A stretch of DNA of 64,000 nt from a virus: IMG/VR virus record IMGVR_UViG_3300002835_000018. One strand, 5' to 3'. Each line of letters begins with the position of its first letter. Within the stretch, counting starts at the first letter, position 1. Position numbers and translations under genes: made by a program. The notes under the pieces are model-generated. The model saw nothing but the letters and a program-made list of their open reading frames with translations. It ran no database searches and was not told the DNA's origin. Positions 1 to 15,389 of this stretch are shown piece after piece.

Positions 1-58
1 CTTTCCAACCGTTGATGATTTTGCTCTTGGGATAAGTCTTTTTGTTAGCAATCTTCAT
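1..58 (-). CDS. Partial early ORF running off the window edge (MKIANKKTYPKSKIINGWK...)
   Basis: GGAG RBS and ATG lie downstream of the promoter at 127-154; the frame is open to position 1. Confidence 0.55.
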   Translation of the reverse strand, partial: MKIANKKTYPKSKIINGWK

Positions 59-126
59 TGTCATACTCCATAGGGTAAAACCTTAATAATCCTCGGGAAA
101 AACTAACATTTGTTGTCCTGTGTAAC

Positions 127-154
127 TATTCGGGTATGTGCCATGATTATTTAG
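127..154 (-). promoter_or_regulatory. Early promoter copy 1 (TAAAT-N16-CGAATA)
   Basis: Plus strand TATTCG-16 nt-ATTTAG; one of 20 equally spaced, co-oriented copies. Confidence 0.85.
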
Positions 155-385
155 CCAAAAAAAGAAAATTCTTTCGCTAAATCTTTTGGGTGGTTGTGCG
201 AATGATTAAGTAGAAGCGTGAGGGATACGCAGTAAACCCGATCTGATGCAAGGGCTGAAGGTGTTATGAGTGCGGTACGACTATTTAAAAAAAGTAGTGT
301 GTAGCCAATACTCTGGCGAACCCGCTTGATGTTGGTAAGACAAGCAGGGAGATCATTTCTCAAGTCGCATCGTATTTCTTATACT
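155..385 (-). ncRNA. Putative structured ncRNA with its own promoter
   Basis: Lies behind promoter copy 2 with no RBS. It has several hairpins, one with a UCUUACCA loop and one with an AUCCCUC loop, and ends in a U-tract. Confidence 0.45.
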
Positions 386-389
386 ATCT

Positions 390-417
390 TATTCGTTTGA
401 CTGGCCGAATTATTTAG
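390..417 (-). promoter_or_regulatory. Early promoter copy 2
   Basis: TATTCG-16 nt-ATTTAG. Confidence 0.85.
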
Positions 418-419
418 GA

Positions 420-458
420 AGAAAATAAAAAAAACGCAGGATGCGGTGAAAGGGATTC
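420..458 (-). terminator. Intrinsic terminator after the DUF932-like gene
   Basis: Minus strand GCAGGGUGCGG-loop-CCGCAUCCUGC followed by GUUUUUUUU. Confidence 0.75.
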
Positions 459-558
459 CGCACCCTGCTGATGCTACTGGATAAGAGGTCGAAACCCAGT
501 AGCGTGATTTAGTAGAGGGGATAAGCTGCCCAGTTCCTACCCCCCCTTACAAACCATC

Positions 559-1692
559 TTAGGCGAACATAAGTTCTTTACCTAAGATAGAGTGTACATC
601 TTTGGTTGTCAAGGCGTTTGCCTTATTTCTCAACCCAATAAACTCATCTTCTGAGTAGCTTGCCAAAGCACCACCTACTTCGTTAAGCTTTTCCCAAGAT
701 GCTTCGCCCATGCGTTGACTTCCTCTTGTAAGGCTATTAACCATACCGAACAAAGTCTTGGCGTAGAATGGAGTCTCTTGGCGTTCAATATCCCAACCGC
801 CTTGAACAGCATCAATCTCATTCTTGCTAAACTTATAGGTTTGAGCTACAGAGGCAAACAGAGGGGTCATACTTGCACCTTCTCCGAATACCATCTTCTT
901 CGTACCTAATAGCTTATCAATCATCACAGGGATAGACTGAATGTGTTTGGCAATGCAAGACTGAATTTGATTAGCCAAGTGGCCAAGATCAACCTTGCCA
1001 CGATGCACTACACTTACATCGTCATGCCTTACCCAACCAATCATGCCATTAGAACAAATAGTCCTAAAGACTCCAGCAGAGATATCAAGCCTGTGAGTAC
1101 CAATCTCAGAGTTCTTGATCTTGATTAGACCACCGTAGTCGCTATCATCGTCAGAGCGAAGACTAGCAGGAAGAACTACGCTGAAGTTAATAAAATCATC
1201 GCCAGACTTATCACAAGCCACCGCCTGACCGCATTCTTGTGGCAAGAATTGCTTGGTTTGATCCAAGACCCAATTGTTATCGATGACTGCGTAACGATCA
1301 CTAAGGAACGCCCTGCAACTATCATCTTGATCATTGAATCTGAAAAGCATTTCCTTGCCGAAGTCTTCTTGGAAGGAGATATCTACCAAGTCTTTAAGAA
1401 TAGCTTGGTGCTTGACATTGTTGGAGTTATACAACTTGTTCAAGGTGAAACTACCCCACTTAGTCTTCGAAGCTAATTGACTAAGAAAGTGCTTGGTAGG
1501 TTTGTATAGCTTATTAGCTTGCCTATCCAAGATGTGGAACTTCTCATCTGCGATAACCGCTTTGACTTGAGGTTCCGCACCATTAACGGTGCAGAGTGCA
1601 TCGTGATAGTGGTTCTTGTTTTCGTTATAGCGATTAATAACGCCAGCATACGCACCACCAGTAAAGCCACGGACAGATTTAACAGCATTCAT
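559..1692 (-). CDS. DUF932/DUF945-like protein
   Basis: 377 aa with NSEIG...AGVFRTICSNGMI, resembling the NS..G...G.FR.VC.NG signature; AGGAG RBS. Confidence 0.7.
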   Translation of the reverse strand: MNAVKSVRGFTGGAYAGVINRYNENKNHYHDALCTVNGAEPQVKAVIADEKFHILDRQANKLYKPTKHFLSQLASKTKWGSFTLNKLYNSNNVKHQAILKDLVDISFQEDFGKEMLFRFNDQDDSCRAFLSDRYAVIDNNWVLDQTKQFLPQECGQAVACDKSGDDFINFSVVLPASLRSDDDSDYGGLIKIKNSEIGTHRLDISAGVFRTICSNGMIGWVRHDDVSVVHRGKVDLGHLANQIQSCIAKHIQSIPVMIDKLLGTKKMVFGEGASMTPLFASVAQTYKFSKNEIDAVQGGWDIERQETPFYAKTLFGMVNSLTRGSQRMGEASWEKLNEVGGALASYSEDEFIGLRNKANALTTKDVHSILGKELMFA

Positions 1693-1751
1693 TAGAAACT
1701 CCTTGTGACTGTGTCACTATAGTAAAAAAATTAAAACCCCTTACATTACTT

Positions 1752-1779
1752 CATTCGTACAACTACAACTTTTATTTAG
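1752..1779 (-). promoter_or_regulatory. Early promoter copy 3
   Basis: CATTCG-16 nt-ATTTAG; its -35 box contains the TAA stop of the upstream ORF. Confidence 0.8.
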
Positions 1780-1976
1780 GAACATTTAAGAAATCTTGGT
1801 TCTTTAGTTACAAGATTGCCATTCTTCCAAGTCTTGCCCATAGGCACTACTTGCCATTCTTGGCCATCTACTGTAAATGTACCGCCAAAGATTGACCATG
1901 CCCCCTCATCTTTGCTTTCTTGCCAAAGCTTTAACAGCTTAACTTTAGTATCTTCGCTCATGTTAGTTGTCTCCAT
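1776..1976 (-). CDS. Hypothetical protein
   Basis: 66-aa ORF overlapping the end of the upstream gene; stop falls in the next -35 box. Confidence 0.7.
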   Translation of the reverse strand: METTNMSEDTKVKLLKLWQESKDEGAWSIFGGTFTVDGQEWQVVPMGKTWKNGNLVTKEPRFLKCS

Positions 1977-2310
1977 AGTTATCCCCCCAAGTTACATAAC
2001 CATCGTTCTTTAACATTTGGAAGACTTCAGCATAATGGTAGTTGTGCCAATTGAAATCCATATCGCCACAAGCTTCAATATACTCTTCGTAAAGTTCGGT
2101 CATATCTATATGATCATATACTGAATCATAGATAGTACCCTTAAGAGCGACATTATCGCTATCAATTTTGCGAAGTGTCTCCAAACCGTACTTTCTCTCA
2201 AGTCTCTGCCCGAAGTGAACAGCAAGGCACTCTAAATCGCCCTCCTGTGGTTTTTCGTATGGCTTATCCTTGACCTCTGGTAAACACCCTAACTTATCAT
2301 TGCTCTTCAT
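1963..2310 (-). CDS. Hypothetical acidic protein (start revised to MKSNDK)
   Basis: The track start (2352) lies inside promoter copy 4; a GAGAGG RBS precedes the ATG at 2310. Confidence 0.75.
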   Translation of the reverse strand: MKSNDKLGCLPEVKDKPYEKPQEGDLECLAVHFGQRLERKYGLETLRKIDSDNVALKGTIYDSVYDHIDMTELYEEYIEACGDMDFNWHNYHYAEVFQMLKNDGYVTWGDNYGDN

Positions 2311-2333
2311 ATCGACCTCTCTTTCTATATACT

Positions 2334-2361
2334 TATTCGTTTCACACCCCAAAAGATTTAC
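2334..2361 (-). promoter_or_regulatory. Early promoter copy 4
   Basis: TATTCG-16 nt-ATTTAC. Confidence 0.85.
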
Positions 2362-2628
2362 CTATTTTGTAAAAATAAATAAAGCATCGTCACCTATCCA
2401 ACTACCAATCATATCCCCTTCCCATTTTAACTTTTCTGCAAACTGGCGAGCAGCAGCAGCAAAGTTTTCCTTATATTCCAACTCGTAATCCCAACCAATG
2501 GTCAGGTTAGGTTGACGATTTTGCATTTTACCGTTACCCAGTCTACACTTAAGGCGTTTGCCCTTTGTGTCGGTAATAGGTAGAACTTTCACAAAAATCG
2601 TAGCACCACCAACAAATTTAATAGTCAT
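2362..2628 (-). CDS. Hypothetical protein (start revised to MTIKFV)
   Basis: AAGGAGA RBS; the TAG stop abuts the next -35 box. Confidence 0.75.
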   Translation of the reverse strand: MTIKFVGGATIFVKVLPITDTKGKRLKCRLGNGKMQNRQPNLTIGWDYELEYKENFAAAARQFAEKLKWEGDMIGSWIGDDALFIFTK

Positions 2629-2649
2629 AACATTCTCCTTGTATATAGT

Positions 2650-2677
2650 TATTCGTTTCACACACCAAATTATTTAC
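2650..2677 (-). promoter_or_regulatory. Early promoter copy 5
   Basis: TATTCG-16 nt-ATTTAC; contains the upstream stop codon. Confidence 0.85.
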
Positions 2678-2814
2678 CGAAATCCAAACTTTTCTTTTAA
2701 TTCTTTGTACAGTAGATCGTACTCATCTTGCCTCATTAGGCTTGTTGCAAACAGTTTGTCCAGCCTATCAACTGCTCGCTCGAACTGGATTTCATTTCTT
2801 TCTTGCTCACTCAT
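2674..2814 (-). CDS. Small hypothetical protein, 46 aa (MSEQERNEIQFERAVDRLDK...), not in the ORF track
   Basis: Hand-translated; AAAGGGG RBS, own promoter, stop inside the next -35 box. Confidence 0.7.
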   Translation of the reverse strand: MSEQERNEIQFERAVDRLDKLFATSLMRQDEYDLLYKELKEKFGFR

Positions 2815-2856
2815 TTCTTTCCCCTTTGTTTATGTTACTTACTTCCCATGTATTTC

Positions 2857-2884
2857 TATTCGTATGAGTATGCTTTTTATTTAA
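2857..2884 (-). promoter_or_regulatory. Early promoter copy 6
   Basis: TATTCG-16 nt-ATTTAA. Confidence 0.85.
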
Positions 2885-2919
2885 TGGAATATGAAAAGAT
2901 TTTTAGTATTACCAAGTAT

Positions 2920-3042
2920 AACCAAAAAAGCAATGTGCGTTCCGCATCCCCGATCCCTCTCCCGATTCCAGAGAGGCGGGTTGTTTTATATCGGCCCTCC
3001 CGATTGTTTCAGATTTTTGATTCTTCCTCTCCTTTCTATATT
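2920..3042 (-). ncRNA. Putative G-rich sRNA, family A copy 1
   Basis: Behind promoter copy 7, with no start codon after the SD-like 5' end, 8 GGA motifs, hairpins and a U-tract; homologous to 5075-5188 and 6690-6765. Confidence 0.55.
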
Positions 3043-3046
3043 TATC

Positions 3047-3074
3047 TATTCGTGCGAGTGGGTTAATTATTTAG
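3047..3074 (-). promoter_or_regulatory. Early promoter copy 7
   Basis: TATTCG-16 nt-ATTTAG. Confidence 0.85.
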
Positions 3075-3107
3075 CCAAAATAAAAAAATATTTTAAATTT
3101 ATTTTAT

Positions 3108-3178
3108 AAGTCCAGCCCCCGCCCATCCCCGCTTTTTTAGCAGGAGGATTTTTAGGTTAATCCCCAACCTCTCTGTAT
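3108..3178 (-). ncRNA. Putative G-rich sRNA, family A copy 2 (short)
   Basis: Behind promoter copy 8; AGGUU-GGGGAUU-AACCU hairpin; shares GGGGAUG and CUGGACU with the other copies; no ORF. Confidence 0.45.
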
Positions 3179-3181
3179 ATC

Positions 3182-3209
3182 TATTCGTTTAAGATGCCAA
3201 ATTATTTAG
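3182..3209 (-). promoter_or_regulatory. Early promoter copy 8
   Basis: TATTCG-16 nt-ATTTAG. Confidence 0.85.
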
Positions 3210-3329
3210 AAAAATTTTTAAAATAAATGGTATAACAAAGTATAATTTTTGATTTTGATAGTGTTGATAATACACTTTTTGTTCATTGGAAAAGTGTGAA
3301 ACCAATTTCGAAATCTCTGAAGAATTCTC

Positions 3330-3359
3330 TTGACAGGTTTTTAACCCCATGTGTAAAAT
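3330..3359 (+). promoter_or_regulatory. Possible sigma70-type promoter, antisense to the early array
   Basis: TTGACA-18 nt-TAAAAT. Confidence 0.35.
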
Positions 3360-3474
3360 CGTCTTGCAGGGGGATATGTTTAACACATTTTAAAATCCTA
3401 TCTTATCTCCAAATAGGTTAAATACTATCTGCATTTGATAGAGTTCATAATTTGAGCAGAGAAATACATAAAGA

Positions 3475-3669
3475 CTAATCATTGTAACTTTCCTCCAAAG
3501 TAAAAAATTCTGGTACTGGTTCAAGTTCATGCTTACCAAAGTGGAGTTTAATCCACAATTCTTTGATGTCTGATTCTTTATAGAATGGGCCATCTTGTTT
3601 ATCTAAGCTTAGTATGATCAAAGCATGTTCAATCAATCGTTTTTCTTCTTTGGTTACATTAATAAGCAT
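3475..3669 (-). CDS. Hypothetical protein
   Basis: 64 aa; GGGAGG RBS; start overlaps the upstream stop. Confidence 0.7.
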   Translation of the reverse strand: MLINVTKEEKRLIEHALIILSLDKQDGPFYKESDIKELWIKLHFGKHELEPVPEFFTLEESYND

Positions 3670-3821
3670 TACATTACCTCCCTGCTAAGTTTTAGTTTTT
3701 CGCCCTGTCTACCACCTTTGGGAGACTTCTTCTTGCTCTTGAATACCACCATGCCCCTTGGAGTTTCCCCTCTGCGTTCAAAGGGGGTGTTTACCAATAC
3801 AAATCTGATAGTCCTGCTCAT
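3669..3821 (-). CDS. Small basic protein, 50 aa (MSRTIRFVLVNTPFERRGETPRGMVVFKSKKKSPKGGRQGEKLKLSREVM), not in the track
   Basis: Hand-translated; AAGGAGA RBS behind promoter copy 9. Confidence 0.7.
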   Translation of the reverse strand: MSRTIRFVLVNTPFERRGETPRGMVVFKSKKKSPKGGRQGEKLKLSREVM

Positions 3822-3844
3822 GTTACATTCTCCTTGTAAAGTTC

Positions 3845-3872
3845 TATTCGTTTAACCACACATTTAATTTAG
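3845..3872 (-). promoter_or_regulatory. Early promoter copy 9
   Basis: TATTCG-16 nt-ATTTAG; contains the upstream stop codon. Confidence 0.85.
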
Positions 3873-4210
3873 CGATCATACCTACTTGGTTTACGCATAG
3901 CATTGCCATTCTCATGAATGAAGTCATCGATACCTAACGCCTCTTCATTCTCCAACTCTCTTGCCTCAAGCATTTGGTGTAGTGCTTGGCAACCGTCTAA
4001 GATTCTGCAATGCAAATACTCAGGATATTTGCCATCTACTGTTTGTATCCAACCATGATCAAACTCTTCTTCGAAGCTGGTTACAACAAAGGTATTAGAC
4101 TTTGGGTTGTAGTTTACTCCGATTATGTAAGCATGGCCGTTGTTCAAGACTTCTGGCATATGCTTAAGAAACTCTGCGTACTCATGACATTCTAAAATCA
4201 AATCGTTCAT
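3869..4210 (-). CDS. Hypothetical protein
   Basis: 113 aa; AAAGGGG RBS. Confidence 0.75.
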   Translation of the reverse strand: MNDLILECHEYAEFLKHMPEVLNNGHAYIIGVNYNPKSNTFVVTSFEEEFDHGWIQTVDGKYPEYLHCRILDGCQALHQMLEARELENEEALGIDDFIHENGNAMRKPSRYDR

Positions 4211-4234
4211 AGCTAACCCCTTTCAAGGATTGTG

Positions 4235-4390
4235 TTACTCTTCGCCTTCCCAACCGTGACGATCCCAACCACCACAATTTTCGTTATCGTCATCATCTTC
4301 GGTATCATCGATTTCGCATCGCTCATCGTAGTTACCATCGAAACAATCTTCGAAAGACTCAAATTCCCACTCATCGTTAGTCCAGTCCAT
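4235..4390 (-). CDS. Very acidic 51-aa protein (MDWTNDEWEFESFEDCFDG...), not in the track
   Basis: Hand-translated; AAGGAG RBS behind promoter copy 10; 23 of 51 residues are D/E. Confidence 0.7.
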   Translation of the reverse strand: MDWTNDEWEFESFEDCFDGNYDERCEIDDTEDDDDNENCGGWDRHGWEGEE

Positions 4391-4426
4391 TTCCATCTCC
4401 TTGGTTAGTGTTACTTACTACTTACT

Positions 4427-4454
4427 TATTCGTATGACTATACTTTTTATTTAG
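4427..4454 (-). promoter_or_regulatory. Early promoter copy 10
   Basis: TATTCG-16 nt-ATTTAG. Confidence 0.85.
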
Positions 4455-4471
4455 AAAAATCTTTTTTATTT

Positions 4472-4669
4472 TTACCACCCTTGGCACTCTTCAGATCGAT
4501 CTTGAATGATCTTGCAATACTGTTGAGCTTCCTCAAGTGTCTTGAACTCTTCTTTAATCTCATCAAGTGTCATCGTTTCAACAATCCAATGACCACCCTC
4601 ATCATAATTATCCTTTGCCCAATTTAATATTTGTCTAGGTACTACCAATCTTTCATCAGGTATCCACAT
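4472..4669 (-). CDS. Hypothetical protein
   Basis: 65 aa; AAGGA RBS; own promoter. Confidence 0.75.
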   Translation of the reverse strand: MWIPDERLVVPRQILNWAKDNYDEGGHWIVETMTLDEIKEEFKTLEEAQQYCKIIQDRSEECQGW

Positions 4670-4709
4670 GGCACTTTTCCTTTTTGTTGGTGTTATCTTC
4701 CTGTAATCC

Positions 4710-4737
4710 TATTCGTACAACTATACTTTTTATTTAG
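4710..4737 (-). promoter_or_regulatory. Early promoter copy 11
   Basis: TATTCG-16 nt-ATTTAG; contains the upstream stop codon. Confidence 0.85.
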
Positions 4738-4952
4738 CTAACTTTTCGAGCAAATAAACTTTTCTCATCTCCGTTATTCGCCCAATCTGTTAAAACCCCT
4801 AAAGCACCAATCGAATCTAAGGCACTTCGAAGATGTCCAAAATAAATCTTAGCATCCTCAGTTCTTTGCCAATCCTCAGCTAGATAAGTATCAGCTAGAT
4901 TAGCTTGCTTAACCAATGTCATCAAAGTGTTTACTGTTGTTTCATAATCCAT
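4734..4952 (-). CDS. Hypothetical protein
   Basis: 72 aa; RBS; own promoter. Confidence 0.75.
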   Translation of the reverse strand: MDYETTVNTLMTLVKQANLADTYLAEDWQRTEDAKIYFGHLRSALDSIGALGVLTDWANNGDEKSLFARKVS

Positions 4953-5000
4953 TTTTCCATCCCCTTTGTTTTAGTTATCGTTACTGCTTCCGTACTATTC

Positions 5001-5028
5001 TATTCGTACAAGTAAGCTTTTTATTTAG
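5001..5028 (-). promoter_or_regulatory. Early promoter copy 12
   Basis: TATTCG-16 nt-ATTTAG. Confidence 0.85.
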
Positions 5029-5074
5029 TGAAATATAAAAATATTTTAGTAAAATTTTATTATACCAAATTAAA

Positions 5075-5188
5075 TCAGTCCAGGCTCCCCCCATCCCCCC
5101 TGGATTTTTTCCCAGATGGCAAGCTTATTTTTTATCGGCCCTTCCCGATTTTTTCAGATTTTTGTTTGTTTCCCTCCTTTCTATATAT
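5075..5188 (-). ncRNA. Putative G-rich sRNA, family A copy 3
   Basis: The 5' ~60 nt are nearly collinear with 2985-3042 (UAUAGAAAGGAG...CAAAAAUCUGAAA.AAUCGGGA.GGGCCGAUA); 7 GGA motifs; no ORF. Confidence 0.55.
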
Positions 5189-5191
5189 TTA

Positions 5192-5219
5192 TATTCGTGC
5201 AGGGCAGGCAATTATTTAG
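5192..5219 (-). promoter_or_regulatory. Early promoter copy 13
   Basis: TATTCG-16 nt-ATTTAG. Confidence 0.85.
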
Positions 5220-5239
5220 CAGAATTTTAAAAATATTTT

Positions 5240-5430
5240 AAAAAGATAATAGGATAAGAATATCCATTTTTGAATTTATTGGTAGTGGTAAGACATACAA
5301 TCTGGGCATACCGCAGCGAACCTCAGTGGTCTTGGTAAGACACCCTGAGCTTTTTTAAAAAGTCTGCTTTTTTCGTTTTCGGTATCTCACCGTGGTTTGC
5401 ACCTAAAAGCAGAAAACATACCGATCATTT
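5240..5430 (-). ncRNA. Structured element (family B) with a multi-stem junction or pseudoknot
   Basis: Two UGUCUUACCA motifs, a 9-bp stem, a GCAA tetraloop hairpin, a 7-bp crossing pairing and the conserved GGAUA/UAUCC end. Confidence 0.45.
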
Positions 5431-5461
5431 TAACTTAATACATTTTGTTTACCTCTTGTTG

Positions 5462-5707
5462 TTATATATAGTTATTCGTACTAGGGCAGTTATTATTTAG
5501 GTAATAGTTCCAAGTTTTTACAAAATCTGTATGCAAGTATCTAAAACATGTTTGGGCAATGTTTCGGTATCCTGCAATTTTTGCAACAACCTTGATTCTT
5601 TTCATATCGCATACCTTGCAATATTCTTTATTGAACACATTACCATCATCATCGGTATCTTGCCCTAGCCTATGCCATTTATTGTGATTACAATTCTTCA
5701 CTATCAT
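5462..5707 (-). CDS. Small CxH...CxxC (putative Zn-binding) protein
   Basis: AGGAGG RBS before MIVKNCNH; YCKVCD motif. Confidence 0.6.
   Translation of the reverse strand: MIVKNCNHNKWHRLGQDTDDDGNVFNKEYCKVCDMKRIKVVAKIAGYRNIAQTCFRYLHTDFVKTWNYYLNNNCPSTNNYI
5473..5500 (-). promoter_or_regulatory. Early promoter copy 14
   Basis: TATTCG-16 nt-ATTTAG, inside the 3' end of the upstream ORF. Confidence 0.8.
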
Positions 5708-5849
5708 CATCATCCTCCTGTTCAATGTCGTATTCTTTCCAAGAATCATTTTGCGAATCTTTCCACGCCCCAAACAAACTTGATTTATATTCAATTACTT
5801 TTTGCTCAAAAGTTAGTTCGGGATAAAACCAAGTATAGTATGAACACAT
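5688..5849 (-). CDS. 53-aa protein with an acidic tail (MCSYYTWFYPELTFEQKV...EQEDDDDSEEL), not in the track
   Basis: Hand-translated; AAGGGGG RBS directly after the gp88-like stop. Confidence 0.6.
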   Translation of the reverse strand: MCSYYTWFYPELTFEQKVIEYKSSLFGAWKDSQNDSWKEYDIEQEDDDDSEEL

Positions 5850-5861
5850 TTTACTTCCCCC

Positions 5862-6563
5862 TTAGTGGTATATGTATGCTACATTTTTGTAATCTTTATC
5901 CCAACACTTGCGACAATCGTCACAATTAACTTTAGCTTCACCGTTGAATGATCTTAAGCTTGCAGGGCAAACATTCTCATGTCGAATATCTGCATTAACT
6001 GGTGTGCTTATTACTGTACTAGTTGGCAAGCCTAGTCCACTACTTGGAACTTGATCTACCATAAACATACTTGCACGAACAATAAGGTTAGCAGGAAATT
6101 CACCGTATAGAGATTGATACTCACGAATCATGCCATGTTCTTTACTGGGTAGCCAGAACTTGATTTCTGGTACTGCTTTAGCTATGTTAGCTATTGCAAG
6201 CAGCATATCTACCGATTGTAAATCCCCACTAGTGAACCATCGAAAATATCTTTTCTCTTGCTTAAGTCTCTTAAGCTTACCTTGGAAGTATTCGATAAAA
6301 GAATCTTGCCAGTCTTGTAAACTTCCCCCTATTTGTTCCATTCTTGCTAGATCGGCTTTTTTCTTACTGCCGAAGATATATCTACCCTTAAGGGCATAAC
6401 AACCGTTACAGATACTACCTTTAACCTTTACTAACTTACTGCCTGTTTGACATAGCCATGCAGGTAAGTCCCAACTTTCCCAAGGCATTTTTTCCGTTTG
6501 CGAAGTCTTGATCGTTATCCTATTTGGTTTAACATCGTCAATCGTTTGCAATTCCATTCTCAT
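5862..6563 (-). CDS. gp88-like (phage gene product 88 family, radical-SAM-related) protein
   Basis: LPAWLC...SICNGCYA, YFRWFTSGD, WLPSKE and a C-terminal CPA...CDDCRKCW; start revised to MRMELQ (AAGGA RBS). Confidence 0.7.
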   Translation of the reverse strand: MRMELQTIDDVKPNRITIKTSQTEKMPWESWDLPAWLCQTGSKLVKVKGSICNGCYALKGRYIFGSKKKADLARMEQIGGSLQDWQDSFIEYFQGKLKRLKQEKRYFRWFTSGDLQSVDMLLAIANIAKAVPEIKFWLPSKEHGMIREYQSLYGEFPANLIVRASMFMVDQVPSSGLGLPTSTVISTPVNADIRHENVCPASLRSFNGEAKVNCDDCRKCWDKDYKNVAYIYH

Positions 6564-6606
6564 CTTACTTTCCTTTTCCTTAGTGTTAGTTATCCTCATG
6601 CTATCT

Positions 6607-6634
6607 TATTCGTTTAACTATGATTTTTATTTAA
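6607..6634 (-). promoter_or_regulatory. Early promoter copy 15
   Basis: TATTCG-16 nt-ATTTAA. Confidence 0.85.
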
Positions 6635-6689
6635 TAGAATATAGAATTATTTTAAATATATTTTGTTATACTATGTTATATCCATAAAG

Positions 6690-6765
6690 CTATAGGCGTT
6701 CCGCATCCCCTATTCCATACTCATTTGCATGGCGGGTTAAGCATTACCCTCAAGCTTCCTTATAT
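6690..6765 (-). ncRNA. Putative G-rich sRNA, family A copy 4
   Basis: Shares AACCCGCC and GGGGAUGCGGAACGC exactly with copy 1; own promoter; no ORF. Confidence 0.5.
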
Positions 6766-6770
6766 TATAT

Positions 6771-6798
6771 TATTCGTTTATGTACCGATTTTATTTAG
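6771..6798 (-). promoter_or_regulatory. Early promoter copy 16
   Basis: TATTCG-16 nt-ATTTAG. Confidence 0.85.
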
Positions 6799-6866
6799 TA
6801 GAATTTTAAAAATAATTTAAAAAGATAATTGGATAAACATGTCCTATTTCGAACTTGTTAATATGG

Positions 6867-6921
6867 GTAATACTTCGTATTACTTTTCAAGCTTGACAGC
6901 TTAGGTAATACTCCGTATTAC
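6867..6921. repeat. Two perfect palindromes GTAATAC-N3-GTATTAC, 38 nt apart
   Basis: Located at 6867-6883 and 6905-6921, each followed by a T-run on the plus strand. Confidence 0.85.
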
Positions 6922-6929
6922 TTTTTTTT

Positions 6930-6987
6930 GGCCTAAAGGCCCGGCTCACCATCTTGCGATGGCAAGCCATTGCCAGCCTTACGGCTA
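6930..6987 (-). other. Run of three hairpins, two with GNRA loops on the minus strand
   Basis: UAGCC-GUAA-GGCUG, GGCUUGCCAUC-GCAA-GAUGGUGAGCC and GGCC-UUUA-GGCC. Confidence 0.7.
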
Positions 6988-7053
6988 CTATTCAATGTTA
7001 CATACCATTATGGTAACAATGTAAGCAACTAAAGCAGATACCATCATTAGCAT
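6988..7053 (-). CDS. 21-aa hydrophobic peptide (MLMMVSALVAYIVTIMVCNIE)
   Basis: GGAGA RBS; starts 1 nt after the upstream stop. Confidence 0.5.
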   Translation of the reverse strand: MLMMVSALVAYIVTIMVCNIE

Positions 7054-7054
7054 G

Positions 7055-7126
7055 TTAGTATTCTCCAAATAGCACTATAAGTAATCCTACAAACACACCG
7101 GCTATTGCACCTATCATTGCTTCCAT
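7055..7126 (-). CDS. 23-aa hydrophobic peptide (MEAMIGAIAGVFVGLLIVLFGEY)
   Basis: AGGAGG RBS; TAATG stop/start overlap. Confidence 0.6.
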   Translation of the reverse strand: MEAMIGAIAGVFVGLLIVLFGEY

Positions 7127-7227
7127 TATTCGCCCCTCCTGTTATATTCTGGTGGCTTATTGATATAAACAACCATTTGCCAAAAACAGATACAATAAAC
7201 AATAAATCCGATTGTAGCTACTATCAT
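7126..7227 (-). CDS. 33-aa single-TM peptide (MIVATIGFIVYCICFWQMVVYINKPPEYNRRGE)
   Basis: ATGA overlap with the upstream gene; AAGGAAGG RBS. Confidence 0.55.
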   Translation of the reverse strand: MIVATIGFIVYCICFWQMVVYINKPPEYNRRGE

Positions 7228-7424
7228 CTTGACACCTTCCTTCCTTGTAATTCTTTACGATATATCGATATTTGATCTACATACTTGCCATAGGTATCAA
7301 TCCCATTGGCTATACATTCTTGGCAATCAGCTATACTAGCTATTAGCCCTGCAATTGACATTCTCTTAGCCTTGACTATCTCAGTCTCCCAATTGCATAT
7401 GTAAGGATTATATGTATTAAACAT
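7224..7424 (-). CDS. Hypothetical protein
   Basis: 66 aa; AAGGAGAG RBS. Confidence 0.75.
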   Translation of the reverse strand: MFNTYNPYICNWETEIVKAKRMSIAGLIASIADCQECIANGIDTYGKYVDQISIYRKELQGRKVSR

Positions 7425-7566
7425 TCGACTCTCCTTGTGTTAGAATATCCCAATCTACTACTATCGGTGTATCTTCGCATTCTAGCGTGATACTAGGCTC
7501 CCATGCCTCATAACTACCATCTCCCATATCTTCCCAAATAATCATCTCACAATCGTCACTGTCCAT
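7417..7566 (-). CDS. Acidic 49-aa protein (MDSDDCEMIIWEDMGDGSYEAWEP...), not in the track
   Basis: AAGGAGAG RBS behind promoter copy 17; 15 D/E and no K/R. Confidence 0.65.
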   Translation of the reverse strand: MDSDDCEMIIWEDMGDGSYEAWEPSITLECEDTPIVVDWDILTQGESNV

Positions 7567-7603
7567 CGTACTCTCCTTGTTAGTGTTACCTTACCTATAT
7601 ACT

Positions 7604-7631
7604 TATTCGTTTGCCCCCTGCTTTTATTTAG
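7604..7631 (-). promoter_or_regulatory. Early promoter copy 17
   Basis: TATTCG-16 nt-ATTTAG. Confidence 0.85.
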
Positions 7632-7661
7632 GAAAAAACAGGAAAAACTTTTTTTATTTTA

Positions 7662-7913
7662 TTAATCGTGGATTACTCCATCGACTATGTATTTGAGAGA
7701 ATAAGCCGATATCGTTTTTTCTCCATGATGATTACCTTCATTGTACGATACTAAAATATAGTATCCATTTTTAGACTTAGCTATTCGTTCTAGTGTACCG
7801 AATCTAAAACCGTCTACTTTACTATCCGCTTGACTATACTTGTTTATCGATATTTTCTTACCGATATTTTCAGCGAATACACCACTTACCGTACCGTTCT
7901 CAATCTTAATCAT
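7662..7913 (-). CDS. Hypothetical protein
   Basis: 83 aa; AAGGA RBS; own promoter. Confidence 0.7.
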   Translation of the reverse strand: MIKIENGTVSGVFAENIGKKISINKYSQADSKVDGFRFGTLERIAKSKNGYYILVSYNEGNHHGEKTISAYSLKYIVDGVIHD

Positions 7914-7988
7914 TTTACTATCCTTGTGCTAAACTATTGTGATAGTGCTTAATTAGGTGACTATCTTAACCTTGCCCGCCTATCTATC

Positions 7989-8016
7989 TATTCGTTTGAT
8001 AGGCTAAATTATTTAG
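7989..8016 (-). promoter_or_regulatory. Early promoter copy 18
   Basis: TATTCG-16 nt-ATTTAG; contains the upstream stop codon. Confidence 0.85.
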
Positions 8017-8255
8017 TAAGATTCTAAATTATTTTCATATTCTTCCCTAAGACATTCTTCAGCTTCGAATCGTGCAATCATATTTTTCTCCATTGCGATA
8101 AAAGCTTGTGCCTCTCTCTCACTATCTACTGTATTGACTAATGTCGCTAAAATCCTCTTGCTTAATCTTGTGCCATTTTTGAATGTCGTTACAAGTTCAA
8201 TCTTTTCATCCCAAATATCGTACTGGCCTTGGCTATTGCTATTGTATACTAACAT
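8013..8255 (-). CDS. Hypothetical protein
   Basis: 80 aa; AAGGA RBS; own promoter. Confidence 0.75.
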   Translation of the reverse strand: MLVYNSNSQGQYDIWDEKIELVTTFKNGTRLSKRILATLVNTVDSEREAQAFIAMEKNMIARFEAEECLREEYENNLESY

Positions 8256-8314
8256 CGTTTCTTTCCTTGTTTTAATCCCTTAAGGTATAACTCATTGTTT
8301 CCCTTATGCTATTC

Positions 8315-8342
8315 TATTCGCTTAAGCCCATTAATTATTTAG
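8315..8342 (-). promoter_or_regulatory. Early promoter copy 19
   Basis: TATTCG-16 nt-ATTTAG. Confidence 0.85.
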
Positions 8343-8496
8343 TAGAATTTAAAAAGTATTTAAAATAATTTTAAAAAGATAATAGGATAAATATATCCAA
8401 TTTTGAATGGGTATGATTAGGTAATACAATCGGCCCGAACTTAGCCAAACTCCATAGCTTCCCTAAGCCCGCCAGTTTAGGTAATACTGGCAAGTT

Positions 8497-8523
8497 AAAA
8501 TTTGAGGGGAGATCTCTCTCCCC
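8497..8523 (-). terminator. Hairpin/terminator after the sigma gene
   Basis: GGGGAGA-GAGA-UCUCCCC followed by UCAAAUUUU (weak U-tract). Confidence 0.5.
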
Positions 8524-8543
8524 CCCTATCTTTCCTATCTTAC

Positions 8544-9038
8544 TTAATCCTCCCTCTTGAAAGCGTCTTTGAGTTCATTCCAAATTTGGCTTATTCTACC
8601 TTCTGATAATTCCAATTCCTTAGCAATCTCTTGATTAGTAAAGCGACAAGCTTTCATGATAATGATATTGTATTCTTGCAAGGTAATCATAGCATCGTCA
8701 AGCAATTCTTGGGCTTGCGTTTGAACTTGTGCTACTAGATCTTCACTAGTGTTAATAGGATCTTGAATCTTACCTAGACTATCTTCACAAGATAGGGAAG
8801 TAGTGTTTTTTCTTACATATTTCTTGCGAAGTTCATCATTAAGCTTATTCTTATAAACTACCCAAATAAACTTTTCAAAGCTAACATCCGATTGGCTACG
8901 GTCAAAGGTAATATAAGCACTTCCAACAACATCGTGGGCAAGTTCGCTTGCTTGCGACTGATTAAGCTTTTTTGAAGCTACTGCAATCAGCTTAGAAGTT
9001 ACTAGGTTAACATCGCAACCGAAAACTGAATTATCCAT
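8544..9038 (-). CDS. Sigma-70 family (ECF-sized) sigma factor
   Basis: Region 2-like ASELAHDV...FDRSQSDVSFEKFIWVVYKNKLNDELRK and region 4 HTH TNQEIAKELELSEGRISQI; the start is probably one of the ATGs at 9038-9047. Confidence 0.8.
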   Translation of the reverse strand: MDNSVFGCDVNLVTSKLIAVASKKLNQSQASELAHDVVGSAYITFDRSQSDVSFEKFIWVVYKNKLNDELRKKYVRKNTTSLSCEDSLGKIQDPINTSEDLVAQVQTQAQELLDDAMITLQEYNIIIMKACRFTNQEIAKELELSEGRISQIWNELKDAFKRED

Positions 9039-9104
9039 AATCATCATCCTTGTAAAAAGTTTAGTAACTGAGAAGTTCAATTACCATAATATCATTCTAA
9101 TATC

Positions 9105-9132
9105 TATTCGGAATAAGTCTAGATTAATTTAA
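9105..9132 (-). promoter_or_regulatory. Early promoter copy 20 (drives the sigma gene)
   Basis: TATTCG-16 nt-ATTTAA. Confidence 0.85.
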
Positions 9133-9315
9133 GTTAATTTTAAAATATTCCCAAAGTTTGTCATTGTGGCAGGTGACGGGTTTTCCGTCTGTCATATTGG
9201 CGGGGTTTTTTCAAATTGACTGCCATTCTGGCAGGGGGTGTCCAAACCCGGGGGCATGTACACTTAACAAGCCAACTATTATAAAAATGTACTACCCATT
9301 CTAGGCAAATCGGCC

Positions 9316-9501
9316 CTAAAGTTTCTTCTTTCTTCGACCAATTTTGCGTTTTACTTCGGGCATCATGTTGCGAATTGTAGCTACACAAATATCTATAAGG
9401 AGTACTTTCCTCAAGGTGTCAACCATTTCTTGAAGTGACATTCGGTAATAGTTCTTGAGTATGAAATCGCAGATAACTTTTTTGGTAGATTTGTCAATCA
9501 T
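9316..9501 (-). CDS. Small basic HTH-like protein
   Basis: FILKNYYRMSLQEMVDTL resembles the N-terminus of ORF 10992; overlaps the upstream gene's stop. Confidence 0.5.
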   Translation of the reverse strand: MIDKSTKKVICDFILKNYYRMSLQEMVDTLRKVLLIDICVATIRNMMPEVKRKIGRRKKKL

Positions 9502-10249
9502 TTGGTTTACTCGCCCACTGGTCAAACTTGTCTTGTGGTATGAACTCTGTTGTTTCGCATTTCGCCCAACTCATAAATTGTTTGTTTACTAATAGGTAAG
9601 CCTTCGGCTTACTCTCAAAACATCTGCTAGCCCAATAAAATCCAGAGAAGGATGAAACCAAAAGAGAAAGCTTAGGCATCAATGTCGAAATTTGCCTTCG
9701 ATTGAATTCGCCCATATCTACAATCTTCGCTTTGCTCGATGGATAGTTGCCATTGCACAACCATAAAATGTGGTAGTCTTTGCAGTATTTTTTTACTATC
9801 TTATCGCCAAAGTGTTTATCTATATAGCTTTGATGACTTGAAAAATGTGATTCGACCCCAAGCAATGGTTTATCATTAAATCGCCCTACAAATTCTTCTG
9901 CCCAATCTAATTCTTCTTTTGTTGGAAAAAAAGCAGGACCATCTTTTATATAATCATACCCATGTCTTTTTAGGTGCATAGGAACTCTTGCATCTAATTG
10001 ATTAACCTGAGCCGGTATTCCACTTATGGTCGTGTCTATTATTTTATATTTTTCCTCTCTGGCAAAAGCATGAGCAGAGGGGTTATCCATATAGATAAGC
10101 TTTTTAACATTGGGCATGTTTAATAGAGCACAATCAAACTTTCTACTTGTGCATACAATTATTTCTGCATCTCTTATTTGAGATATTGCACCGGCGGAAC
10201 AAAGATTATCTCCAAACCGTTCATAAGCTTGGACTAGCAATTTTTCCAT
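9494..10249 (-). CDS. Glycosyltransferase, GT9/heptosyltransferase-like
   Basis: N-terminal RFGDNLCSAGAISQIR and C-terminal LLVSSFSGFYWAS fit the GT9 pattern. Confidence 0.6.
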   Translation of the reverse strand: MEKLLVQAYERFGDNLCSAGAISQIRDAEIIVCTSRKFDCALLNMPNVKKLIYMDNPSAHAFAREEKYKIIDTTISGIPAQVNQLDARVPMHLKRHGYDYIKDGPAFFPTKEELDWAEEFVGRFNDKPLLGVESHFSSHQSYIDKHFGDKIVKKYCKDYHILWLCNGNYPSSKAKIVDMGEFNRRQISTLMPKLSLLVSSFSGFYWASRCFESKPKAYLLVNKQFMSWAKCETTEFIPQDKFDQWASKPND

Positions 10250-10251
10250 AA

Positions 10252-10270
10252 TGTATTATAATTAATACAC
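10252..10270. promoter_or_regulatory. Bidirectional late-type promoter palindrome TGTATTA-TAAT-TAATACA
   Basis: Sits in the 35-nt gap between divergent genes; each strand carries a near copy of the late box. Confidence 0.6.
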
Positions 10271-10284
10271 AGGAGAAATCAATA

Positions 10285-10479
10285 ATGAATACGCCACAAA
10301 AGATAGAGACAGAATTAAGAATAGTTGCTCACGGAGATATTTTAACTCCAATTGAGCCAGATCCTTCTGAGGATGAAGCATTAATTAGGATAGTCGCAAA
10401 CACTAGTTCTTTGGAAACTAAAACAAATGATCTATCCTCACGGACTGACGGAAAAGCAAGTGATGACGGCAATGGATAA
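10285..10479 (+). CDS. Hypothetical protein
   Basis: 64 aa; AGGAG RBS. Confidence 0.6.
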   Translation: MNTPQKIETELRIVAHGDILTPIEPDPSEDEALIRIVANTSSLETKTNDLSSRTDGKASDDGNG

Positions 10480-11014
10480 GGCAATCGCCCTCCTTGCTAC
10501 AACATTTATGTTTGGTTATTATGATAGTGATGACATAAGACAAGAAGCTTATATTTTTGGTTTAGAAGCTTTACCTCGTTATGACCCATCTCGCCCACTG
10601 GAAAATTTCTTGTACACGCACATAAGAAATCGGCTAATAAATTTCAAGCGTGACAAATACCATCGCACAGACTCTCCCTGCAAAATCTGTTCAGAACACG
10701 GTAGGCATCCAGATGGCTCAGTTTGCCAGAAGTACATCTCTTGGAAAAGAAGAAACTCATCTAAGCAAAACTTGATGCGACCACAAGATATACAGAACAC
10801 TGATGATACAGAAAAGGCTATGAGACTAAATCAATCTGTTGTAGATGATGCAAACATAGCTGAATGTTTAGAGCTTATAGATAATAATCTAGATGTTGAA
10901 CTTAGATCAACTTATATTAGAATGAAGAATGGCGAACCAGTGCCAAAAGCCAAAAGATTTAAAATAGAAGAATCAATTAAGGAGATTATAAGTGGCAGGA
11001 AAAAGGCTGAATAA
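10427..11014 (+). CDS. Sigma-70 family factor (region 2 plus Cys/His insert, no clear region 4); candidate late sigma
   Basis: DDIRQEAYIFGLEALPRYDPSRPLENFLYTHIRNRLINFKRD; CKIC..H..H....C insert. Confidence 0.8.
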   Translation: MIYPHGLTEKQVMTAMDKAIALLATTFMFGYYDSDDIRQEAYIFGLEALPRYDPSRPLENFLYTHIRNRLINFKRDKYHRTDSPCKICSEHGRHPDGSVCQKYISWKRRNSSKQNLMRPQDIQNTDDTEKAMRLNQSVVDDANIAECLELIDNNLDVELRSTYIRMKNGEPVPKAKRFKIEESIKEIISGRKKAE

Positions 11015-12816: not shown

Positions 12817-13285
12817 AGTAATTAGAGATACTAGAGAGCAAAATGGCTGGACTTTTATGCCAGCAAAAGCTTGCGATGGAACTGTATCTGGAACACTAAA
12901 GACTGGTGATTATTCCATAGAGGGATATCAAGATATATTAACCATAGAAAGAAAAGGTTCTATTGCAGAATTGGCAACAAATTTAGTTGAAGATAGATTT
13001 GAAAGAGAACTAGAAAGAATGGAGTCTTTTAAATATGCATTTATGATCTTAGAGTTTTCTATGGATGATTTAATTAAATACCCTAAAGGTTCTGGAATAC
13101 CATACTATAAGATGAAGAGTGTAAAATTAAATCCGTTTTTCTTACTTAAAAGATTAATTGAAATAGAACTTAAGCATAAGGTTAAAATTATCTTTGCAGA
13201 AAATCATGGGCAAACTGTTGCTTCATCAATATTTAAAAGAGTGATTGAAAATGAAGGACCAAGAGAAATTAAAGAGCATAATTGA
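12800..13285 (+). CDS. ERCC4/XPF-family nuclease
   Basis: DTREQ, LKTGDYS, IERKG..EL and RFERELERM. Confidence 0.85.
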   Translation: MDTKYKVIRDTREQNGWTFMPAKACDGTVSGTLKTGDYSIEGYQDILTIERKGSIAELATNLVEDRFERELERMESFKYAFMILEFSMDDLIKYPKGSGIPYYKMKSVKLNPFFLLKRLIEIELKHKVKIIFAENHGQTVASSIFKRVIENEGPREIKEHN

Positions 13286-15389
13286 TCGGGCATGGATGCT
13301 ATCTGAGCAAGAAATGCTTGCTGTTAGCCCATTGACTGATATCAACGATATTCAAAAAATAGTTGATTTGCCTTTAACAAATATTCATCCATTAAAAAAC
13401 ATTTCCAAATCGGACATGGAAAGATTAGACATTTACTTGCTAAAAGTTATGAGAAATCCAGACTACTTTCCTTTTACATGCAAGCTTTTGTTTGGGATAG
13501 ACATATTTCCTTTTCAGCACATTATACTTAAAGAGCTTTGGAAAAGGCCATTCCCAATGATCATCGCTGGTCGTGGTGCGGGTAAAAGTTATATTCTTGC
13601 ATTATACTCTATGCTCAGACTTTTGTTTACTCAGGGTTGTAAGATTGCAATCATAGGCAAAGTATTTAGGCAGAGTAAAGTTATATTTGAATACATGGAA
13701 GGTCTATGGGCGAATGGCGTTATCTATAGAGATATATGTGGTGTTGGTAAAGGAAGAAATAATAGAGATCAAGGCCCAAGACGAGATATAGATAGATGTG
13801 AAATGATTGTTGGTGAAAGTGTTGCTATGGCATTGCCATTGGGAACAGGTGAAAAGATTAGAGGTCAAAGAGCTAACTATACAGTTTGTGACGAGTTCGC
13901 TTCTATTAGAGAAGACATTTATCAAAATGTGGTAAGAGGTTTTTCTAGCGTAGCATCTAATCCAAGTGAGAAAGTTCATAGGCAAGCAAAAATAAGATTG
14001 ATGAAACAGCTTGGTGTTTGGACCGATGAAGATGAAGCACAGGAAAGCAAAATACTTAGAAGCAACCAGAACATTGTTGCTGGTACTGCCTACTATTCTT
14101 TTAATCACTTCTATAAAACATGGGCGAATTATAAAAGGATAATTGAAAGCAATGGCGAAAAAAAGGCTCTAGAAGAAATTTTTCAAGGGGCAATACCAAC
14201 TGGGTTTGACTGGAGAGATTATTCTATAATAAGACTTCCAGTAGAAATACTTCCTGTTGGTTTTATGGATGCCAAACAGATAACATCTGCTAGAATAAAT
14301 AGTACGAAAGCGAATTATCTAATCGAGTATGGTGCTACATTTGCTACTGATTCTGATGGTTTTTTTAAACGAAGTTTAATTGAATCTTGTATTGTTGGAA
14401 AGCCAGAAAGCCCAATAAGTTTAGCAGATGGAGAAATAGTCTTCCATGCTTCTTTACTTGGTGATGGCTCTGTACAACATGTTATGGCAATCGATCCAGC
14501 TTCTGAAAGAGATAATTTTGCTGTAATTGTGTTGGCTTTACATGCAGATCATAGAAGAATAGTTTACTGTTGGACAACTAATAGAAGTGCGTTTAAACAA
14601 AAAATGAACAAGGGTATTGCAAAAGAAAAAGATTTTTACAGTTACTGCTGTAGAAAAATCAGGGATTTAACAAAAGCCTTTCCGAATATGGTGAGAATAG
14701 CACTTGATAGTCAAGGTGGCGGTGTTGCCATAGAGGAAGGTTTACAAGACCCAAATAGAATTAATGAGGCAGAATCACCAATATATAGAGTTATAGAAGC
14801 CAACAAATCAAAAGACACAGATGATAAGCGTGGTGAGCATATTCTTCAAATGATTAATTTTGCAGATGGCAATTGGGTTTTAGAGGCTAATCATGGTCTT
14901 CGTAAAGATATGGAAGATAAAGTTTTACTTTTCCCATTCTTTGATCCAGTATCAATAACTCTTGCAGAAGAAGAAGATATTGCTGCTGGAAGAAAAGAAG
15001 ATTTAACAAATTTGTATGATACGCTAGAAGATTGTGTTATGGATATAGAAGAGTTAAAAGACGAATTGGCCAGCATCGTTCATACACAAACTGTTGCTGG
15101 AAGAGATCGTTGGGATACTCCAGAAAGTAGAGATGTTGATGGTAAAAAAAGCAGGATTAGGAAAGATAGGTATTCTGCTCTTTTGATGGCAAACATGGTT
15201 GGAAGAATGTTTCAAAGGATTGAAGTTCAAGAAGAATATATACAAGCTGGTGGTTTTGCATCATCTGTAGAGACTAAGAACAATGGTGGACCTATGTATA
15301 TTGGTCCAGAATGGTTTAAACAAGCTACGAAGAATAGTGCTAGTTATGGTACAGTTATCCCTACAAGGTGTAATAATATTTTAGAGTAA
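13251..15389 (+). CDS. terL: Terminase large subunit
   Basis: Walker A AGRGAGKS, KIRGQRA, Walker B TVCDEFA, nuclease AIDPAS...D and KDRYSAL. Confidence 0.9.
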   Translation: MKDQEKLKSIIDRAWMLSEQEMLAVSPLTDINDIQKIVDLPLTNIHPLKNISKSDMERLDIYLLKVMRNPDYFPFTCKLLFGIDIFPFQHIILKELWKRPFPMIIAGRGAGKSYILALYSMLRLLFTQGCKIAIIGKVFRQSKVIFEYMEGLWANGVIYRDICGVGKGRNNRDQGPRRDIDRCEMIVGESVAMALPLGTGEKIRGQRANYTVCDEFASIREDIYQNVVRGFSSVASNPSEKVHRQAKIRLMKQLGVWTDEDEAQESKILRSNQNIVAGTAYYSFNHFYKTWANYKRIIESNGEKKALEEIFQGAIPTGFDWRDYSIIRLPVEILPVGFMDAKQITSARINSTKANYLIEYGATFATDSDGFFKRSLIESCIVGKPESPISLADGEIVFHASLLGDGSVQHVMAIDPASERDNFAVIVLALHADHRRIVYCWTTNRSAFKQKMNKGIAKEKDFYSYCCRKIRDLTKAFPNMVRIALDSQGGGVAIEEGLQDPNRINEAESPIYRVIEANKSKDTDDKRGEHILQMINFADGNWVLEANHGLRKDMEDKVLLFPFFDPVSITLAEEEDIAAGRKEDLTNLYDTLEDCVMDIEELKDELASIVHTQTVAGRDRWDTPESRDVDGKKSRIRKDRYSALLMANMVGRMFQRIEVQEEYIQAGGFASSVETKNNGGPMYIGPEWFKQATKNSASYGTVIPTRCNNILE
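15367..15377 (+). promoter_or_regulatory. Late promoter box GGTGTAATAAT (portal)
   Basis: Motif recurs just upstream of late genes. Confidence 0.7.

Follow-up and report, generated by a model that had tools for sequence, protein, structure and literature searches.

Early region and RNA modules

The 64,000-nucleotide (nt) virus sequence IMGVR_UViG_3300002835_000018, referred to at its full length as the window, comes from a tailed phage that encodes a large terminase (13245-15389), collagen-like fibres and open reading frames (ORFs) of 2769 and 4984 amino acids (aa). Judging from the gene content of relatives, described below, its host lineage is probably Planctomycetota, likely Gemmataceae. 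The early region (positions 1-10,250) is transcribed from the minus strand and contains 19-22 copies of a promoter-like box, CTAAATAA-N13-ACGAATAR, all within 1-10,300 and on the minus strand only. Most box copies are followed within 35-50 nt by a small gene and its Shine-Dalgarno (SD) sequence. This study concerns four short elements, c1-c4, each directly downstream of its own box copy on the minus strand, which an earlier note on this DNA had described as promoter-driven segments without an ORF. That description holds: the -10 boxes end at 3047, 3182, 5192 and 6771, and the 107-163 nt after each contain no SD-led ORF of more than 12 codons before the next promoter. Three other ORF-less promoters lie at 5498, 415 and 152.

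Relatives of the window were found in IMG/VR and metagenomes through a GP88-like gene (5862-6599 in the window) and DNA patterns. They span protein identities from 99% to about 59% and include two complete genomes, G002 (141.8 kb, with direct terminal repeats) and G001 (221 kb). The 15-mer GGGGATGCGGAACGC has 86 matches in IMG/VR, near chance expectation, and only matches accompanied by the promoter array were kept. A blastn search against cultured phages (INPHARED) gave no match. The promoter box is conserved in the relatives, its upstream half reading TTGAATAA in distant ones, and its downstream half resembles the ComX/SigH 'TACGAATA' box.

Comparison of 39 distinct element copies from these phages revealed a common order of parts: a 5' leader, a small hairpin with a purine loop (H1), a linker, a second hairpin (H2) and a G-rich tail of type A or type B. 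The members in the window are as follows.

3047..3072, minus strand: promoter-like box of c1 (CTAAATAA-N13-ACGAATAG).
2937..3046, minus strand: c1 RNA module, with 90-92% identity in phages where that of the GP88-like gene is 67%; 5' leader UAGAAAGGAG, H1 (3004-2990), linker AACCCGCC, H2 (2976-2956) with an outer CCCG/CGGG stem, and type B tail GGGGAUGCGGAACGC (2951-2937).
3182..3207, minus strand: promoter-like box of c2.
3110..3181, minus strand: c2 RNA module, paired in 100% of cells and with one G-C to A-U compensatory pair; GGUU-GGGGAUU-AACC (3169-3155), whose G-rich segment is able to pair with a downstream AAUCCUC, hairpin CCUGC/GCGGG (3144-3128) and type A tail GAUGGGCGGGGGCUGGAC (3127-3110).
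5192..5217, minus strand: promoter-like box of c3, with a long A/T stretch and a GGATA..TATCC inverted repeat upstream.
5078..5191, minus strand: c3 RNA module, whose set of copies covaries; 5' leader UAGAAAGGAGG, H1 AUCGG-GAAGGG-CCGAU (5149-5134), linker AAGCUUGCC, H2 (5119-5096) and type A tail GAUGGGGGGAGCCUGGACU (5095-5077).
6771..6796, minus strand: promoter-like box of c4; the long A/T element found upstream of the c3 box recurs here.
6696..6770, minus strand: c4 RNA module, 89% identical to its counterpart in contig L015, whose neighbouring gene is 70% identical; leader with AAGGAAGCUUGAGGG, linker AACCCGCC, hairpin CCAUGC-AAAUGA-GUAUGG (6732-6715) and type B tail GGGGAUGCGGAACGC (6710-6696).
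176..283 (RNA about 204-283), plus strand: probable fifth member; box CTAAATCT-N13-GCGAATGA (176-203), hairpin GCG-UGAGGGAUA-CGC, AAACCCG, a variable middle and a degenerate type B tail AUGAGUGCGGUACGAC; it aligns with opposite-strand copies in G002 (L106:7960-8110, plus) and the L003 group (L003:16030-16160, minus).

A family defined by shared blocks and a common fold

The sequence blocks that the earlier note had reported among c1-c4 are exact. c1 and c3 share UAUAGAAAGGAG and AUCGG-GA(A)GGG-CCGAU, c1 and c4 share AACCCGCC and GGGGAUGCGGAACGC, CUGGACU occurs in both c2 and c3, and GGGGAUG is found in all four. The reported GGA counts of 8, 3, 7 and 4 (in 117, 77, 120 and 81 nt) are likewise correct. 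A covariance model, which the note had proposed as a check, was built only from relatives' copies of the c3 type; it recovers c1 (E = 2e-10) and c2 (E = 2e-6) and finds nothing else significant in the 64 kb, and c4 is linked to c1 through the AACCCGCC linker and the 15-nt tail. These observations together establish the family as real. The note had counted four copies, all of which are confirmed, but the family probably extends to the fifth member on the plus strand.

Across the relatives, the parts of the unit differ in how freely they vary. The leader of c1 and c3 types contains UAGAAAGGAG(G), and H1, flanked by runs of A, is conserved as AUCGG-GA(A)GGG-CCGAU except in one lineage, where it reads UAUCGA-GAAGGA-UCGAUA through a G-C to A-U exchange. 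The linker is AACCCGCC or AAGCUUGCC. H2 is fixed in position and free in sequence, with at least 12 different stems occupying the same position. The tail is almost invariant, being either GGGGAUGGGGGGAGSCUGGACU (type A) or GGGGAUGCGGAACGC (type B). In c2 types H1 is replaced by GGUU-GGRGAUU-AACC, the G-rich part of which can pair with a downstream AAUCYUC, and c4 types lack H1. H1 may bear a likeness to the sarcin-ricin loop (CGAGAGGACCG-like).

Selection on the RNA fold

Between phages in which the conserved GP88-like gene has a DNA identity of 67-70%, the element cores retain 82-92%. Among the c3 copies, pairing holds in 95% of cells as against 26-53% in controls with slid partners, five pairs have changed on both sides, and the covariation score was reached by none of 500 shuffles. 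The c1 set contains two compensatory pairs, and c4 contains one (C-G to U-A in the L003 group), its stem being extended in L013. Several stems hold G·U pairs, which on the opposite strand would read C·A; such pairs are workable only in the sense RNA, to which the fold therefore belongs. By these comparisons, the elements are under strong purifying selection.

The same data bear on the possibility, which the earlier note had named, that the segments are decayed or empty promoter cassettes, functionless products of recombination between promoter repeats. Such recombination does drive rearrangement in these phages. In L001, a relative 94% identical to the window, a comparison of 3040-3240 with window positions 2860-3220 reveals a c2-type promoter joined straight to the H1 of c1; the c2 body, the c1 promoter and the c1 leader are absent, about 135 nt in all, a fusion that implies recombination between promoter repeats. 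The 5' leader also equals that of gene cassettes, the generic UAUAGAAAGGAG serving there as a real SD (L003 12830; window 2334). Against decay stand the higher conservation of the cores than of the gene, the compensatory changes, and the retention of three or four copies in every lineage examined, with about four copies per complete genome, all inside 6-7 kb of the early region. Taken together, these rule out decayed cassettes, to which we assign next to no probability.

The L001 fusion invites comparison with the PeSL (promoter-early stem-loop) cassettes that Arbiol et al. in 2010 are said to have described in T4-type phages. Both systems have arrays of near-identical early promoters with stem-loops on either side of small modules, an arrangement that promotes shuffling. 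Unlike in PeSL cassettes, the module between promoters here is a conserved non-coding RNA, not a small ORF.

The setting of the copies is informative as to how they act. Each has its own promoter, c2 precedes c1 and not a gene, the genes downstream of the elements vary among relatives, and three lineages, the window included, contain an opposite-strand copy that is convergent with early transcription. These features favour a function that is not tied to a particular downstream gene. Positions 150-415 of the window hold two convergent ORF-less units, with a minus-strand promoter (415-390) facing the plus-strand box (176-203) that drives the fifth member; the two transcripts would overlap as antisense RNAs.

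We conclude that the elements are probably functional RNA modules. We infer that c1-c4, along with the probable fifth copy, are genes for small structured early RNAs with discrete ends, transcribed from the phage's own class of promoter and coding for no conserved protein. The earlier note's reading of them as a family of promoter-driven, non-coding, structured and purine/GGA-rich RNA modules of the early region is supported, and the family is conserved.

The invariant tail

A further claim of the earlier note, that the units have no usable start codon, goes too far: no SD-led ORF exceeds 12 codons, but an AUG within the tail opens frames of 9-37 codons. This AUG could start a tiny leader peptide (MRNA[H/Y].. 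or MGG[A/G]WT..), with H2 masking or exposing the SD, in which case the unit would be a translational switch or a micro-protein gene. The AUG is present in 38 of the 39 distinct copies, after G runs of a kind used as SD elsewhere in the phage; some changes are synonymous (GCA/GCC, CAU/CAC, CGG/AGG, GGG/GGC, GGA/GGG); and the c2 frame stops inside the next -35 box, as do those of real genes. Yet the G run is spaced only 0-1 nt from the AUG in type A tails, and the frames, besides being so short, have nothing in common past residue 5-6. Between close relatives (L127 and the window) indels change the frame, in L017 the AUG is replaced by AAG, and substitutions are without clear third-position bias. 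Translation from the tail is thus a quite improbable account of the family.

The G clusters could alternatively mark R-loop replication origins or primer RNAs, composed of a promoter, a G-cluster transcript and an A/T-rich unwinding stretch. G clusters do occur on the non-template strand just past strong promoters, followed by A/T-rich DNA, and several copies are present, a situation paralleled by the several origins of T4. Type B tails contain few G clusters, however, and the covariation of hairpins with G·U pairs indicates that selection acts on an RNA fold. The A/T-rich DNA belongs to the next promoter as its upstream element, and there is no replication-gene context here. We consider an origin function very improbable. 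A G-quadruplex reading was also dropped, as G tracts are inconsistent between the two tail types.

Complementarity to 16S ribosomal RNA

The 3' end of Gemmataceae 16S ribosomal RNA is GGAUCACCUCCUUUCUA, to which the 5' starts of c3 and c1 are perfectly complementary over 11 and 10 nt, respectively. The predicted duplexes have energies of -20.0 (c3) and -16.9 kcal/mol (c1), as against -7 to -11 for the SDs of genes, and no start codon lies within 4-15 nt of this SD-like box (here called a super-SD). c2 and c4 have no such 5' box.

These features raise the possibility that the elements serve as 30S-binding (anti-SD) RNAs or, in cis, as 5' stabiliser leaders, in which UAGAAAGGAGG and SD-like runs bind 16S without translation and shield the RNA and its read-through transcript from 5' decay, with no role for CsrA. 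The STAB-SD mechanism, in which 30S binding stabilises an RNA without translation, is established (PMC4113751). Like the STAB-SD of cry3A and the polypurine 5' stabiliser of SP82 (PMC4113751), c1 and c3 have a polypurine, SD-like box close to their 5' ends that is complementary to 16S over 10-11 nt. GGGG also serves as a real SD in this phage (4964, 2814), and the elements lack a terminator, so read-through into the next cassette is likely.

Several observations sit poorly with stabilisation as the function of the family. Unlike in STAB-SD, the box is confined to c1 and c3 types and the unit lacks an ORF of its own that could be stabilised. In c2, c4 and two copies from relatives (L001:3086, L018:5195) the other parts are kept without a super-SD, and the remainder of the element, including its best-conserved parts, H1 and the tail, goes unexplained. 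Neither the opposite-strand copy nor the c2-to-c1 tandem has a gene to stabilise. Titration of ribosomes by a small RNA, for its part, is quantitatively implausible. We regard 30S binding as a possible but doubtful explanation for the family as a whole.

Comparison with transcription and processing signals

The elements might also be cis-acting signals at the head of early operons, either nut/put-like antitermination sites with H1 in the role of boxB or RNase sites read by a phage protein. Like lambda nut (boxA/boxB) and HK022 put, they are promoter-proximal. The H1 hairpin, flanked by runs of A, pairs over 5 bp around a purine loop of 5-6 nt that begins with GA; its stem covaries and its loop keeps its sequence. 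The invariance of the tail suggests a protein that recognises it by sequence, and a 50-aa protein with an isoelectric point (pI) of 11.6 is encoded close by (3669-3821).

The likeness to nut and put has clear limits. The elements have no boxA-like element (no CGCTCTT(T)A-like box before H1), and Pfam identifies no N- or Q-like protein among the early ORFs. There are few downstream terminators to read through, and a fresh promoter follows each element, so that most downstream RNA polymerases never cross it. One copy is reversed and faces no operon. A signal function in cis therefore seems unlikely.

A possible role as CsrA decoys

The earlier note had likened the elements to the CsrB/RsmZ RNAs that titrate CsrA-type regulators. 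We favour this reading, that the elements are CsrA-type decoy RNAs, with a probability of roughly one in three. The RNAs would act in trans as look-alikes of ribosome-binding sites without a translatable gene. Two hairpins and an unpaired tail of 15-20 nt would offer purine-rich SD-like or GGA sequence in loops, at helix ends and in the tail, and would thereby titrate a factor that normally acts at ribosome-binding sites, most likely a member of the CsrA family (host paralogs, a phage CsrA or both). Titration would protect or time the translation of early mRNAs, many of which have ACAAGGA(G/U) sites, and the 5' super-SD of c1 and c3 may bind the 30S subunit and stabilise the RNA as in STAB-SD.

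Several findings place CsrA in this phage lineage. The CsrA family (PF02599) scores above the Pfam cut-off in four of five related contigs; the four include the two complete genomes and the relative with 94% identity. The encoded protein has 76 aa, with both conserved strands, LVFxRK and APKxIxIxR, preserved. Its PDB matches, to Bacillus/Geobacillus CsrA, are weak, and its gene sits behind an ACGAATA box. In the relative G005 (L192:164-1668, also L193-L195), csrA (L192:1438-1668, minus strand) is part of an operon with genes for a coiled-coil protein and a DUF1501 protein of 425 aa with a twin-arginine translocation (Tat) signal. The closest cellular relatives of the latter (62-73% identity) are all Planctomycetota, mostly Gemmataceae, which points to a host in that phylum. 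Several 97-180 kb contigs labelled as metagenome-assembled genomes (MAGs) may be phage genomes binned with their host. Five Planctomycetota/Gemmataceae genomes encode 3-15 CsrA paralogs each.

Candidate targets are found within the early region itself. ACAAGGA occurs at 9 of about 21 early ribosome-binding sites (1700, 2636, 3831, 7242, 7432, 7574, 7921, 8264 and 9047, all minus strand), and that of a sigma-like gene reads UACAAGGAUGAU. The 'AC' of this motif is not accounted for by 16S pairing. ACAAGGA is the core of the E. coli CsrA consensus from systematic evolution of ligands by exponential enrichment (SELEX), and UACAAGGAUGAU lies close to that consensus. Two sigma-like ORFs lie in the window (8544-9044, minus; 10427-11014, plus), the Pfam matches of the first being weak. 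A motif shared between the csrA leader and the tail was considered and dropped, as CUGGAC is present in one relative's leader and absent from another's.

Phage CsrA homologues are known and track the CsrA of their hosts (PMC8450108), and knockdown of one weakens the phage (PMC11879866). The phages studied here resemble those systems (PMC8450108; PMC11879866) in that CsrA occurs both in the candidate host phylum and, as a homologue, in related phages. Our literature search found no report of an RNA antagonist for a phage CsrA. We likewise know of no CsrA-antagonist RNA in Planctomycetota.

The elements have a good deal in common with CsrB/CsrC/RsmX/Y/Z. They are promoter-driven and ORF-less, measure 75-120 nt, form several small hairpins and contain 4-7 GGA per 100 nt, a density similar to that of CsrB/RsmZ; the phage lineage itself has a CsrA gene, and the candidate host lineage has many. 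Unlike those RNAs, they are phage-encoded, have no Rfam homology and no rho-independent terminator, display few GGAs in A(N)GGA loops, and carry a long invariant G-rich single-stranded tail together with, in c1 and c3, the 5' super-SD.

Several points weigh against the decoy reading. The GGA richness that the earlier note had found striking is real by density, at 3.9-6.8 per 100 nt as against 1.6 across the early strand (3-4x), but it does not exceed the dinucleotide expectation of each element (shuffles, p = 0.27, 0.83, 0.50 and 0.09 for c1-c4). As to the placement of GGAs in loops, about two of the eight in c1 lie wholly within loops, two are in the 5' single strand and four are at helix junctions, and A(N)GGA fits three of the eight. 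H1 loops are mostly GAGGG or GAAGGG and not GGA, with GAAGGA confined to the L186/L152 type. The nearly invariant tail of 15-20 nt suggests a sequence-specific partner rather than a reader of GGA, and ACAAGGA, the motif of the presumed targets, is present in none of the elements. Rfam searches of the whole window, the early region and each element, at the gathering score and at permissive E, gave noise only; the elements alone had no match to any family, Csr/Rsm included, up to E = 10.

The inferred 3' ends have no convincing intrinsic terminator (no hairpin with a U-tract), which counts against discrete small RNAs; runs of U are confined to some type B copies, where they begin 3-7 nt past weak stems. 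The elements do not stand out in folding energy (z between -0.5 and -1.9). The evidence for csrA comes from related phage contigs, among them the 94%-identical relative, and not from the window, and since the relatives' csrA belongs to the same promoter class, sponge and protein would be co-expressed.

No C-rich target in trans was found in the window. A search for 8-mer complements of the tail and H1 on all transcribed strands of the window returned only the elements' own opposite strand and matches at chance level, such as CCGCAUCC in a terminator at 446. A search for the tails in five Planctomycetota genomes gave control-level matches only.

A more specific version of the decoy reading is a self-contained phage Csr-like circuit, in which early decoy RNAs and a phage CsrA together time early translation or neutralise the host's 3-15 paralogs; we put this forward tentatively, as a proposal more apt to prove wrong than right. 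The probability that the readings considered here leave over falls to a functional RNA with a partner not yet imagined. The elements are a phage RNA family undescribed so far, at most a variant of the sponge or stabiliser kinds and not a demonstrated member of Csr/Rsm.

Other features of the early region

The ORF-less transcript of the promoter at 5498-5473 (5220-5473, minus strand) is a separate conserved structured RNA. Its long stem UCUGCUUUU/AAAAGCAGA is swapped for UUACUACUUUU/AAAAGUAGA in L014 and for GGUGUUU/AAACACC in L003, and a core GGUGCAAnCC..GUGAGAUACC is conserved.

GTWWTAC half-sites (GTTATAC, GTAATAC, GTATAAC) recur as pairs between the elements and the next promoter (2895-2925, 5040-5070, 6655-6690 and 6868-6925), and the c3 and c4 promoters are preceded by GGATA..TATCC inverted repeats; both kinds of site are likely operators of a DNA-binding protein. 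The highly basic 50-aa protein mentioned above (MSRTIRFVLVNTPFERRGETPRG..., minus strand) is encoded just upstream of c2 and c1, has no family match and is possibly a nucleic-acid binder.

On the plus strand, a near-consensus sigma-70-like promoter (TTGACA-N18-TAAAAT, 3330-3359) lies inside the early region. Hairpins with T-runs at 5134-5159 and 6868-6925 are terminator-like on the plus strand only, one of them being the complement of the c3 H1. A search of the window for tRNA and tmRNA found none.

Implications for phage gene control

If the proposed Csr-like circuit exists, it would supply the first CsrA sponge encoded by a phage. Homologues of CsrA occur widely in phages, and RNAs that mimic ribosome-binding sites are a candidate for the missing antagonist or partner. 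The finding would point to takeover at the RNA level in a host phylum whose phages are nearly unstudied. Even if the partner is not CsrA, the elements constitute a well-defined new family of phage RNAs, whose invariant tail of 15-20 nt calls for a specific partner.

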